From Candidatus Omnitrophota bacterium (GTDB lineage: Bacteria > Omnitrophota > Gorgyraeia > JABMRG01), in contig JAQUQI010000002.1 of the NCBI GenBank assembly GCA_028716165.1, forward strand, positions 83,228 through 147,227: DNA of 64,000 bases, in the 5' to 3' direction. Both the position numbers and the translations under genes were made by a program. Below, in pieces: positions 14,416 to 16,312 of the stretch (positions are counted from its first letter, which is position 1; every line of letters begins with the position of its first letter). The notes beneath the pieces were generated by a model, which searched no databases, had not been told where the DNA came from, and was given only the letters and a program-made list of their open reading frames with translations.

Positions 14416-15069
14416 TTATAATAGTTCCGCTTCCATTCTGTCTATAGTTTTTTGAACATCATCTATTGTCTTTGATGAAAGTATATTTGACGTCCTGGCT
14501 TCGCTGACAAGGCTTTTAAGCGTTGTCAAAAATCTCTTTAGCAGGGTAAGCCGTTTTTTCTGCCACACCTCTTCAGGCTCCAACTCTTCACGTTGTCTGA
14601 TAAGAGCTGTCAGGTCTTTTTTGACAGAACCGGCGTCTTTGCCCATTTCAAGCACTGATCTTTTTATCTTCGCGTAGTCATCCCGGTTTAGATTTTTTTT
14701 GTTACTGGCAAGGCGCAGGACATCAACCGACTCATAGCTGGGCAAGAGCGCCGTGTCCGCTTCATCGTTATAATCTTTTTTAAGATAAAGAGGGTCTTCT
14801 TTTTCCAAAAAAGAATATGACCTTAACAGCTTGATGGCCGTCTGTTTACGTATGCCTATCTCTTTCGCTGTATATACTTCAAACTTATCGTAACCCCATC
14901 CTTTGTATAATTTATCTTTCCACACGCTGTATAGGGCCTGTGCCAGGTTTATCCATGAGGTCTTGAAATTTTTAGCGGATTCCAGTATGCCATGCCTTAT
15001 GCCGGACTCTTCAAACTGCGACATCTTTTCTTCTATTATTTTTATGGATTTGGTTTTTATATCGCTCAT
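14416..15069 (-). CDS. hypothetical protein
   Basis: 217-aa ORF with coding composition; no recognised motif. Confidence 0.55.
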   Translation of the reverse strand: MSDIKTKSIKIIEEKMSQFEESGIRHGILESAKNFKTSWINLAQALYSVWKDKLYKGWGYDKFEVYTAKEIGIRKQTAIKLLRSYSFLEKEDPLYLKKDYNDEADTALLPSYESVDVLRLASNKKNLNRDDYAKIKRSVLEMGKDAGSVKKDLTALIRQREELEPEEVWQKKRLTLLKRFLTTLKSLVSEARTSNILSSKTIDDVQKTIDRMEAELL

Positions 15070-15123
15070 CTTATGTGCCTGTTTTTCCCGCGGGCTTGTC
15101 TAAGTGGAAATATTAGAAAGCGC

Positions 15124-15170
15124 AGAATAAAAATAAACGCGCGGACCGTGTTGAAAGCGAATCCGCGCGG
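15124..15170 (-). terminator. rho-independent terminator (CGCGCGGA...TCCGCGCG hairpin + U-tract) downstream of the small Cys-rich ORF
   Basis: 8-bp GC-rich inverted repeat at 15138-15169. aataaaaataaa at 15126-15137 on plus gives the U-tract on the minus strand. Confidence 0.6.
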
Positions 15171-15223
15171 TCGGGTTTAATGCGGTAGTGCCGGTTTATC
15201 CGAGATTACAAACGCTGTTGTCG

Positions 15224-15397
15224 TTAATAGTAGTTTTCGTCTTCCTTGTCATAGCCGTCATAGTTGTCGCCGCCGGAACTTTCGCCCTTGCCGGCGCTTG
15301 AACATTCATTATATTCAGGGCACCGGGGACAGCATTCATCTTTTATCTGATCATCTTCTAAACATTTTTCATAACGTATACATGACTCGCAGCACAC
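15224..15397 (-). CDS. 57-aa cysteine-rich zinc-ribbon-like small protein with acidic Tyr-rich tail (VCCESCIRYEKCLEDDQIKDECCPRCPEYNECSSAGKGESSGGDNYDGYDKEDENYY); not in the supplied ORF track
   Basis: Translated by hand from the minus strand. GTG start preceded by GGAGGA (plus tcctcc 15405-15410) with a 7-nt spacer. Two CxxC pairs (CESC, CPRC). Followed by an intrinsic terminator. Confidence 0.5.
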   Translation of the reverse strand: MCCESCIRYEKCLEDDQIKDECCPRCPEYNECSSAGKGESSGGDNYDGYDKEDENYY

Positions 15398-15444
15398 AGA
15401 AATATCCTCCTTATATTTTTGGCGCCTCCAGCAATTATTTCAAA

Positions 15445-15819
15445 TCAATCTTCCATAGACTCAAGTTCTTCAAACTCTTCAACACGGTCAACAAAGATAT
15501 CCTTCGCCACGTTTTTCCCGCCCTCTAAAACAATGAATTCAATATCCACAAGATTGCCGGGGGTGATCTGCTGGACTGATTCTACCGAATCAAAGGACGT
15601 TTGTTCGTTAATATAGTAGGCGACTTCCTGATCTTCCCCTGTCGCGTAGTCAAATTCTCTTATAAGTATCTGTTCAGGAGAAACGCTCAATACCTCACCG
15701 TAAGCATAAAAAGACTGCGCCTCTTCAACAGCCGGAGCAGGTGTGTTTTCCGTCTGGGCATGGAGATATCCTACGCAGAAGCAAAACGTAACAGTAATAC
15801 ACGCTAACAAAATTCTCAT
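15445..15819 (-). CDS. secreted acidic hypothetical protein (start taken at internal Met MRILLAC...)
   Basis: Signal peptide ILLACITVTFCFCVGYLHAQ; the 8 codons upstream would overlap greA. Confidence 0.55.
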   Translation of the reverse strand: MRILLACITVTFCFCVGYLHAQTENTPAPAVEEAQSFYAYGEVLSVSPEQILIREFDYATGEDQEVAYYINEQTSFDSVESVQQITPGNLVDIEFIVLEGGKNVAKDIFVDRVEEFEELESMED

Positions 15820-15826
15820 AACAGGT

Positions 15827-16312
15827 TCACCTCCTTTCAATATTTATTATTTTGTATTTTAAAGTGCCAGCAGGCACATTAATCTCAACGGTTTCGTCTT
15901 TTTTTCTGCCAAGAAGGGCCTTGCCTACGGGTGAGGATACCGATATCATTCCTTTTGAAAAATCGGATTCAGCTTCGGAAACAAGGGTATAGGATTCATT
16001 TTCGCCGGTGTCAATATCCTTAACAGTCACAGTGGCCCCGATAAGGGCTTCGTTTGAGGATATGCGCGATTGGTCAATTATCCTGGCCCTGGCCAATTGA
16101 TTTTCCAGCTCAAATATCCTTTTCTCATTCATGCCCTGGGCGTCTTTCGCCGCGTCGTATTCGGCGTTTTCGCTTATATCTCCGAGAGCGCGGGCTTTGC
16201 CTATCTCTTCAGACAGCTGGCGCCTTTTTTTTGTTTTCAAATATTCAAGCTCATTTTTTAGCTTGGTATAGCCTTGTTGTGTCAGGTAAATATTTTCCAT
16301 AGCTTTTACCAT
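15827..16312 (-). CDS. greA: transcription elongation factor GreA (probable start at MENIYLTQQG, 16300)
   Basis: N-terminal coiled-coil with ...ALGDISENAEYDAAKDAQ... FKBP-like C-terminal domain. ~157 aa. Confidence 0.9.
   Translation of the reverse strand: MVKAMENIYLTQQGYTKLKNELEYLKTKKRRQLSEEIGKARALGDISENAEYDAAKDAQGMNEKRIFELENQLARARIIDQSRISSNEALIGATVTVKDIDTGENESYTLVSEAESDFSKGMISVSSPVGKALLGRKKDETVEINVPAGTLKYKIINIERR

Follow-up and report, generated by a model that had tools for sequence, protein, structure and literature searches.

The window, by which we mean the whole 64,000-nucleotide stretch of DNA that was analysed, carries on its minus strand a coding sequence of 57 codons for a 57-aa protein with eight cysteines (Cys8; 15224..15397), which starts with GTG at 15397-15395 and stops with TAA at 15226-15224. 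Its translation is exactly the one quoted in an earlier sequence-only reading of this DNA. The Shine-Dalgarno sequence GGAGGA (15405..15410, minus strand) was found where that reading had placed it, separated from the GTG by the 7-nt spacer tatttct, and AAGGAGG(A/G) is kept at an equal distance from the start in the upstream DNA of relatives L001-L011. The ORF had been called unannotated, which holds just for an ORF track with a minimum of 60 aa: GenBank contains an exact match, the "hypothetical protein" MDD5504048.1 (locus PHV77_01895), on a 257-kb contig of a Candidatus Omnitrophica MAG. Proteins shorter than 60 aa are routinely lost to ORF filters; if called, they are left as "hypothetical".

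The cysteines occupy positions 2, 3, 6, 12, 22, 23, 26 and 32, forming two CC pairs and two CxxC motifs (residues 3-6 and 23-26). They account for 14% of the 57 residues and lie entirely within a 31-residue core, where the proportion rises to 26%. The window has 396 ORFs of 40 aa or more; of the short ones, this is the richest in cysteine, and its motif occurs a single time. Residues 33-57 (15227..15301, minus strand) form an acidic, tyrosine-rich tail with seven Asp/Glu, two Lys and four Tyr, and end in YY. The N-terminus (MCCESC) is not hydrophobic and there is no signal peptide; the protein would therefore remain in the reducing cytoplasm. The eight cysteines, the two CxxC motifs, the composition of the tail and the lack of a signal peptide had all been described in the same terms from the DNA sequence.

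The upstream partner on the same strand (PHV77_01900 in GenBank; 15445..15819, minus strand) encodes a secreted acidic protein of 124 aa with a predicted OB fold. A TTG at 15840 is an alternative start, giving 131 aa. The fold was predicted from an alignment of two sequences, as the word-index search found just two homologues. The partner contains no cysteine, and no histidine or methionine in the folded domain, and is therefore not expected to be a soft-metal binder of the CusF type. A gap of 47 nt separates the end of the OB gene from the small ORF. Between the two, the only sigma-70-like match (15443..15415, 9/12) was rejected as the small ORF's own promoter: it would initiate transcription inside the Shine-Dalgarno sequence, and we therefore prefer the view that the small ORF is probably co-transcribed with the upstream OB gene.

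Downstream of the stop codon there is an intrinsic-terminator-like element (15128..15169, minus strand). The GC-rich hairpin with U-tract that the sequence-only reading had proposed was found at 15169-15138, with the arms CGCGCGGAU.CG and CG.GUCCGCGCG, followed by UUUAUUUUUA at 15137-15128. In isolation the hairpin folds with an energy of -16.9 kcal/mol (z = -3.2), which was equalled by one of 200 shuffles. A simple terminator scan did not pick it up because its loop exceeds the length that the scan allows. The syntenic relative L005 has a hairpin and T-tract at the matching position 3' of its small ORF. Taken whole, the 3' region folds no better than shuffled sequence, and Rfam has no family in the small-ORF region, nor anywhere in the whole window.

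A first search for homologues gave one cluster of 12 orthologues from metagenomes, with 57-66% identity. This grew to 20 clusters at 50% identity, all aligning from residue 1, when 1.84 billion representatives were searched exhaustively with a profile, and a word-index profile search of a 5.8-billion-sequence collection yielded 56 clusters at 90% identity. The related proteins total about 60 sequence clusters and are 42-76 aa long. All taxonomically labelled members derive from MAGs, and the labels are restricted to Omnitrophota, WOR-3, 'Atribacteria' and 'Planctomycetia'; the remainder come from metagenome contigs. No relative was found in the viral contigs of IMG/VR. A literature search on the CCX2CX5C motif and its variants, on DUF2769 and on small Cys-rich proteins of Omnitrophota returned no description of such a family. 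As judged by these searches, the 57-aa protein belongs to a previously undescribed family of small eight-cysteine proteins, the Cys8 family.

In an alignment of 59 sequences all eight cysteines are invariant, and 58 of the proteins begin with M-C-C, the exception having a 20-residue N-terminal extension. The family signature is M-CC-x2-C-P-x-Y-x2-C, nine residues, CC-x2-C-P-x-[YF]-x2-C and then a variable charged tail. In the window protein, repeat 1 is CCESCIRYEKC (residues 2-12; 15362..15394, minus strand) and repeat 2 is CCPRCPEYNEC (residues 22-32; 15302..15334, minus strand), joined by the nine-residue linker LEDDQIKDE (15335-15361, minus strand). The repeats were delimited by the motif and by hhalign, which aligned one with the other at a probability of 96% (E 3e-9); by this comparison an 11-residue four-cysteine unit is duplicated in tandem to form the core. 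The linker measures 9 aa in 56 of the 59 members. Tyr occupies position 9 in 57 of them, position 29 is Tyr or Phe in every one, and L18, D20 and P27 are nearly invariant. The eight cysteines allow two readings: a pair of Cx2Cx5C triads with a fourth cysteine adjoining each, or a twin Cx9C. Of the 59 tails, 45 are acidic, 11 basic and three neutral, and 40 have an aromatic residue within the last three positions. The basic-tail form (MCCRAC...) is WOR-3-labelled, and the acidic-tail form (MCCE[ES]C...) is of the Omnitrophota type. Residues 33-57 are probably disordered, as suggested by AlphaFold2 pLDDT values below 50 at residues 37-47. The sharp signature, the number of clusters and the purifying selection described below make for a family definition fit for a Pfam or NCBIfam model. 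The internal duplication, the strict N-terminal M-C-C, the family as a whole and the conserved pairing with an upstream secreted protein go beyond the sequence-only reading. The family, its duplicated signature and its gene partners are new; the broader kind, small Cys-rich metalloproteins, is familiar, and nothing known is overturned.

To assess selection, we compared codons between relatives. Over the core (codons 2-33), the comparison with the syntenic L005 gave dN 0.039 and dS 0.484 (dN/dS about 0.08). Against L001 there were 11 synonymous and four non-synonymous codon differences, and within the L001 group dN/dS was 0-0.2 over codons 2-35. The tail evolves fast, with 14 non-synonymous and five synonymous codon differences from L005. 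On these counts, the 57-codon frame is a selectively maintained, translated-looking gene with a core under purifying selection. The earlier claim of a genuine small-protein gene with its own Shine-Dalgarno sequence and terminator is borne out by this conservation, as the frame is kept in related genomes and synonymous changes dominate. One lineage departs from the pattern: in L012 and L013 the small ORF has decayed, with codon 2 changed from TGC to TGA, three more Cys codons replaced and a frameshift in the tail, and in the L012 pseudogene copy the Shine-Dalgarno sequence is weakened to GGAGAA. Both neighbouring genes are intact, and the small ORF is therefore dispensable in that lineage.

Profile and structure searches did not place the family. 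Neither Pfam nor NCBIfam has a family for the 57-aa protein, and none rose above noise for any of the 59 relatives. The only recurrent Pfam signal was DUF2769 (PF10967), a family without known function, which matched 10 of the 59 members weakly (best E 0.018). In P0014 the match covers 12 residues of repeat 2 (CPKCPEYNECAG) on profile positions 3-14 of 57. We rejected membership of this family: P0014 scores 11.9 bits against a gathering cut-off of 22.8, and the window protein itself has no match. Searching the profile against every PDB sequence, with E values up to 10 admitted, gave zero matches. AlphaFold2, run on the 59-sequence alignment, produced a low-confidence model (mean pLDDT 58), too uncertain for structural conclusions, with helices at residues 9-14, 19-25 and 27-36 and no strands, and a Foldseek search with this model against the PDB likewise gave zero matches.

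The gene contexts of the small ORF vary between clades. In six diverged Omnitrophota-type lineages (the window and L005; the L002 group; L026; L016 and L023; L018; L019), the genes directly 5' of the small ORF are homologous, with 21-59% identity between lineages, and encode acidic proteins of about 120-130 aa with a signal peptide. In L019 the stop of the OB gene overlaps the start of the small ORF. This pairing of the small ORF with a secreted OB-fold protein is testable. The window and L005 are fully syntenic: a 272-aa gene (a relative of the 297-aa ORF in the window), BaxI, GreA, the OB gene and the small ORF are followed downstream by a 217-aa gene, PpiC and a GuaA-like gene. A GH65 and GT4 pair lies directly 3' of the small ORF in L026, L008 and others, and at least GH65 does so in L002; in L026 a homologue of the 217-aa gene and PpiC come after the pair. 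The window and L005 do not have the pair, and have the terminator and a longer spacer in its place. In L016, L018, L019 and L023 the first gene of the operon encodes an ArsR/SmtB-family regulator (72-77 bits against an NCBIfam cut-off of 55). The operons of the window, L002, L005 and L026 are without an ArsR gene and have GreA upstream instead. On inspection, the ArsR-type regulators of the relatives have a single conserved cysteine in helix 3, and canonical metal sites are not evident in them. In the WOR-3-type loci L014, L015, L021, L022, L025 and L027, the small ORF begins 6-17 nt after an Arginase-family gene, which in L014, L021, L025 and L027 scores as the metalloenzyme agmatinase (196-210 bits with TIGR01230, whose cut-off is 174). 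In L025, two paralogues with tails of opposite charge, one basic and one acidic, adjoin each other 3' of the agmatinase gene, the stop of one overlapping the start of the next. The copy in L024 stands alone, with bacA and dut on either side.

With a probability of roughly 0.6, we propose that the 57-aa protein binds metal through its thiolates in the cytoplasm and would serve either the homeostasis of metal or thiol stress or the delivery of metal. Metal binding by the Cys-rich part is most likely and the most reasonable reading of the sequence, with four cysteines per repeat and the high cysteine density of the core in its support. The eight invariant thiolates would fold the 31-residue core around metal, probably with one tetrathiolate site per repeat, or else in a small shared metal-thiolate cluster; any assignment of ligands to sites would be a guess. 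Ions of the Zn(II) type are slightly favoured because eight ligands in 31 residues are very compact, and an Fe or Fe-S centre would be the main alternative. The disordered acidic tail (basic in some relatives) may serve as an interaction or solubility appendage. For the role in homeostasis or metal delivery, the ArsR/SmtB regulators, the agmatinase and the periplasmic OB partner offer circumstantial hints. The low AlphaFold confidence despite 59 sequences would be consistent with a metal-dependent fold and proves nothing. In Pfam, NCBIfam, the PDB and Foldseek, no profile, sequence or fold match ties the family to a characterised metalloprotein. The window operon without ArsR, the regulators without evident canonical metal sites and the loss of the gene in L012/L013 weaken the case for such a role. 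Further points against the proposal are the variation of gene context from clade to clade, the lone copy in L024 and the lack of soft-metal ligands in the OB partner.

Bacterial metallothioneins are of the SmtA/BmtA type, repressed by the ArsR-family protein SmtB, and also include the mycobacterial MymT. The Cys8 protein resembles them in being cytoplasmic and about 55 aa long, in a core cysteine density (8/31) comparable to that of a metallothionein domain and in the presence of CC and CxxC motifs. Several relatives, not including the window copy, lie in operons headed by ArsR/SmtB-family regulators in which canonical metal-site residues are not evident, and the poor AlphaFold confidence is as expected of metal-templated folds. 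In classical metallothioneins aromatic residues are few or lacking and positions other than cysteine are little conserved, whereas in the Cys8 family two aromatic positions together with Y9, L18, D20 and P27 are nearly invariant. The strict duplication of the cysteine unit and the long charged tail are further differences, and there is no sequence or profile similarity: metallothionein profiles are absent from the Pfam matches of the 59 members at E values up to 10. Of the label "metallothionein-like" in the sequence-only reading, the high cysteine content stands, and the near-invariant aromatic and other non-Cys residues and the missing profile match speak against the rest. By analogy, the Cys8 protein may work like a metallothionein, yet outside the described metallothionein families. 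If its metal were identified, the protein would represent a very compact module (eight ligands in 31 residues) or offer a handle on metal or redox homeostasis in Omnitrophota and WOR-3.

A tentative alternative is a miniature Fe-S protein, in which each CC-x2-C-x5-C half would ligate a [4Fe-4S] or [2Fe-2S] cluster, or a dimer would share clusters. Its possible function, put forward with the same reserve, would be that of an electron carrier, or of a Wbl-like redox or O2/NO-sensing protein that engages its partner via the charged tail. The N-terminal site of NUBP1/Nbp35, the Wbl proteins, the cytoplasmic domain of RseC and SPASM domains all have the cluster-ligand spacing Cx2Cx5C plus a fourth cysteine; NUBP1 and Wbl ligate a [4Fe-4S] cluster with it, and in RseC it forms an oxygen-sensitive Fe-S cluster. 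The identical spacing with a fourth cysteine occurs twice in the Cys8 family, and the duplication of the four-cysteine unit recalls 2x[4Fe-4S] ferredoxins. Such a centre would also agree with the conserved Pro behind a ligand Cys, with the conserved aromatic residue near by and with the sources of the labelled members, since Omnitrophota, WOR-3, 'Atribacteria' and 'Planctomycetia' are anaerobic lineages. However, the fourth cysteine is adjacent (CC) rather than distant as in the known proteins, the Cys8 protein is much smaller, and the likeness is at the level of the motif, with no homology. A 31-residue core is very small for shielding two cubanes. There is no ferredoxin or Wbl profile match, the Whib profile having reached only E 4.3 in one of the 59 members (8.4 bits against a cut-off of 23.6), and the Wbl motif G[V/I]WGG is absent from the 59-sequence alignment. 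Among the neighbouring genes of the examined loci, none encodes a redox enzyme that would need a carrier.

A rather unlikely possibility is that the Cys8 module goes beyond one more zinc knuckle and forms a minimal metal-centre domain of a new type, serving Omnitrophota and WOR-3 as a metallochaperone or as a sensor of redox state. The duplicated 31-residue module would then carry Fe-S clusters; alternatively, the N-terminal Cys-Cys, exposed after removal of the Met, would bind and hand over Ni, Co or Fe. The charge of the tail would set the choice of partner, for which the opposite-charge paralogues of L025 may be compared. C2, C6 and Y9 coincide with the Ni-hook of NiSOD (H-C-x3-C-x2-Y), a coincidence that we treat as a lead only.

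The sequence-only reading had called the protein zinc-ribbon-like. As a zinc-ribbon or zinc-finger regulatory micro-protein, it would form one Zn(Cys)4 site from the two CxxC knuckles and act in partner regulation or nucleic-acid binding, which we judge improbable. The two CxxC motifs are 16 residues apart, and zinc binding has been shown for small CxxC-x17-CxxC proteins of Methanosarcina (PMC12704099). The archaeal zinc micro-proteins, comprising the CxxC-x17-CxxC group of Methanosarcina mazei and the CPxCG proteins of Haloferax, share with the Cys8 protein a length below 60 aa, paired CxxC motifs, poor annotation and loss to length cut-offs (PMC12704099). They differ in having four invariant cysteines, where the bacterial Cys8 proteins have eight within the duplicated CC-x2-C-P-x-Y-x2-C; this invariance extends beyond the four knuckle cysteines. 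Zinc-ribbon and zinc-finger profiles gave nothing above noise, with a single zf-UDP match (E 0.75) among the 59 members, and the low-confidence model is helical and without beta-hairpins, on which a zinc ribbon carries its knuckles within a small three-stranded sheet. AlphaFold usually does well on CxxC zinc sites (PMC12704099), but it gave no confident tetrahedral site for the 57-aa protein. Cys S-S distances in that paper are about 3.5-4.0 Å for Zn sites and 5.7-6.7 Å for [4Fe-4S] sites.

The C2-x9-C12 and C22-x9-C32 spacing also recalls the twin Cx9C of CHCH proteins such as Cox17, and the weak model has helices over both halves. Cox17 has a CC-containing Cu(I) site, and the helical hairpin of CHCH proteins is held by disulfides in an oxidising compartment. 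We rejected CHCH membership: the spacing fits, but the compartment of a cytoplasmic protein without a signal peptide is wrong, and the CHCH profile in Pfam matched none of the 59 members.

We also weighed a RiPP precursor of the ranthipeptide/SCIFF or sactipeptide type, with cysteines cross-linked by a maturase. The protein is small, Cys-rich and without a Pfam match, and L021 and L022 have a radical SAM/SPASM gene about 5.8 kb upstream. Five genes, one of them in the opposite orientation, lie between that gene and the small ORF, and the related L014 has no such gene. No radical SAM/SPASM maturase or other tailoring enzyme adjoins the small ORF in the window, L002, L005, L014, L016, L018, L019 or L023-L027, and a maturase, protease or exporter adjoins it in none of about ten independent contexts. 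The Cys-rich part comes first, from residue 2 onwards in 58 of the 59 members, which leaves no room for a leader, and the variable part sits at the C-terminal end. The NCBIfam RiPP-precursor models did not match the 57-aa protein. With no linked maturase and the leader/core order wrong, a RiPP precursor is very improbable and was rejected.

That the frame is a chance ORF in the 3' UTR of the upstream gene, as its shortness, its GTG start and the disrupted copy in one lineage might suggest, is scarcely credible and is refuted by the conservation data: the region has no Rfam match and its RNA folding is not unusual, while the frame, the start and the eight cysteines are conserved over about 60 clusters, the Shine-Dalgarno sequence is conserved with them, and the core dN/dS is low.

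The gene for the 57-aa eight-cysteine protein (window 15224-15397, minus strand) is represented by a decayed copy on two independent metagenome contigs (L012:2040-2217 and L013:5970-6147). The start of this copy reads GTG TGA, which places a stop at codon 2, and three more cysteine codons besides codon 2 have been lost, two to tyrosine and one to leucine. Its tail carries a 1-nt deletion, and its Shine-Dalgarno sequence has mutated to GGAGAA. The OB-fold gene and the GH65 gene on either side of the decayed copy are both intact. With the small gene decayed between intact neighbors, this lineage can evidently dispense with the small protein.

Between the gene for the secreted acidic OB-fold protein and the small ORF, the group of loci L001, L002 and L008 contains a 14-bp sequence that is perfectly palindromic, TTAAGCGCGCTTAA, with an A-run after it (L001:98-111; L008:5968-5981; window counterpart at about 15421-15430). 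The six sequences that were aligned, among them the window (GGCGCC), all share the GCGC core. Folding predicted no stable RNA hairpin at this palindrome, which could be a site of protein binding.

Downstream of the small ORF, the window encodes a 217-aa hypothetical protein (14416-15069, minus strand). This gene is kept beside ppiC in L005, which is syntenic with the window, and in L026, where the protein has 214 aa. The 217-aa protein has no NCBIfam match and yielded only sub-threshold matches, to TelA and bAvd-like proteins. In relatives, two genes, one for a GH65 glycoside hydrolase/phosphorylase and one for a GT4 glycosyltransferase, separate the small ORF from the homolog of this gene (L026:5172-8794 and L008:6172-9725, the counterpart of window 15070-15223). 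Neither is present in the window or in L005, where a terminator and a spacer of 154-326 nt occupy that place. The presence versus absence of GH65/GT4 is an indel of ~3.6 kb between related genomes.

The minus strand carries nearly all long ORFs of the 64-kb window, and neither tRNA genes nor Rfam families at gathering score were found anywhere in it (1-64000).

Two family members lie back to back downstream of agmatinase in another relative (L025:1095-1390), the stop of one overlapping the start of the next. The tail of the first is basic, ending …RRGARLKTVKEV; that of the second is acidic, ending …ERIEEEEEEEF. Basic-tail and acidic-tail types may form pairs.

The taxonomic labels of some metagenome-derived relatives look unreliable. 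L006 (CAZBNF010000023.1) is labeled 'uncultured Planctomycetia bacterium', yet it is nearly identical to the L008 locus both in the order of its genes and in the sequences of its proteins, and the gene order of L008 is common to loci labeled Omnitrophota. Another relative, P0044, likewise carries the label 'Atribacteria'.
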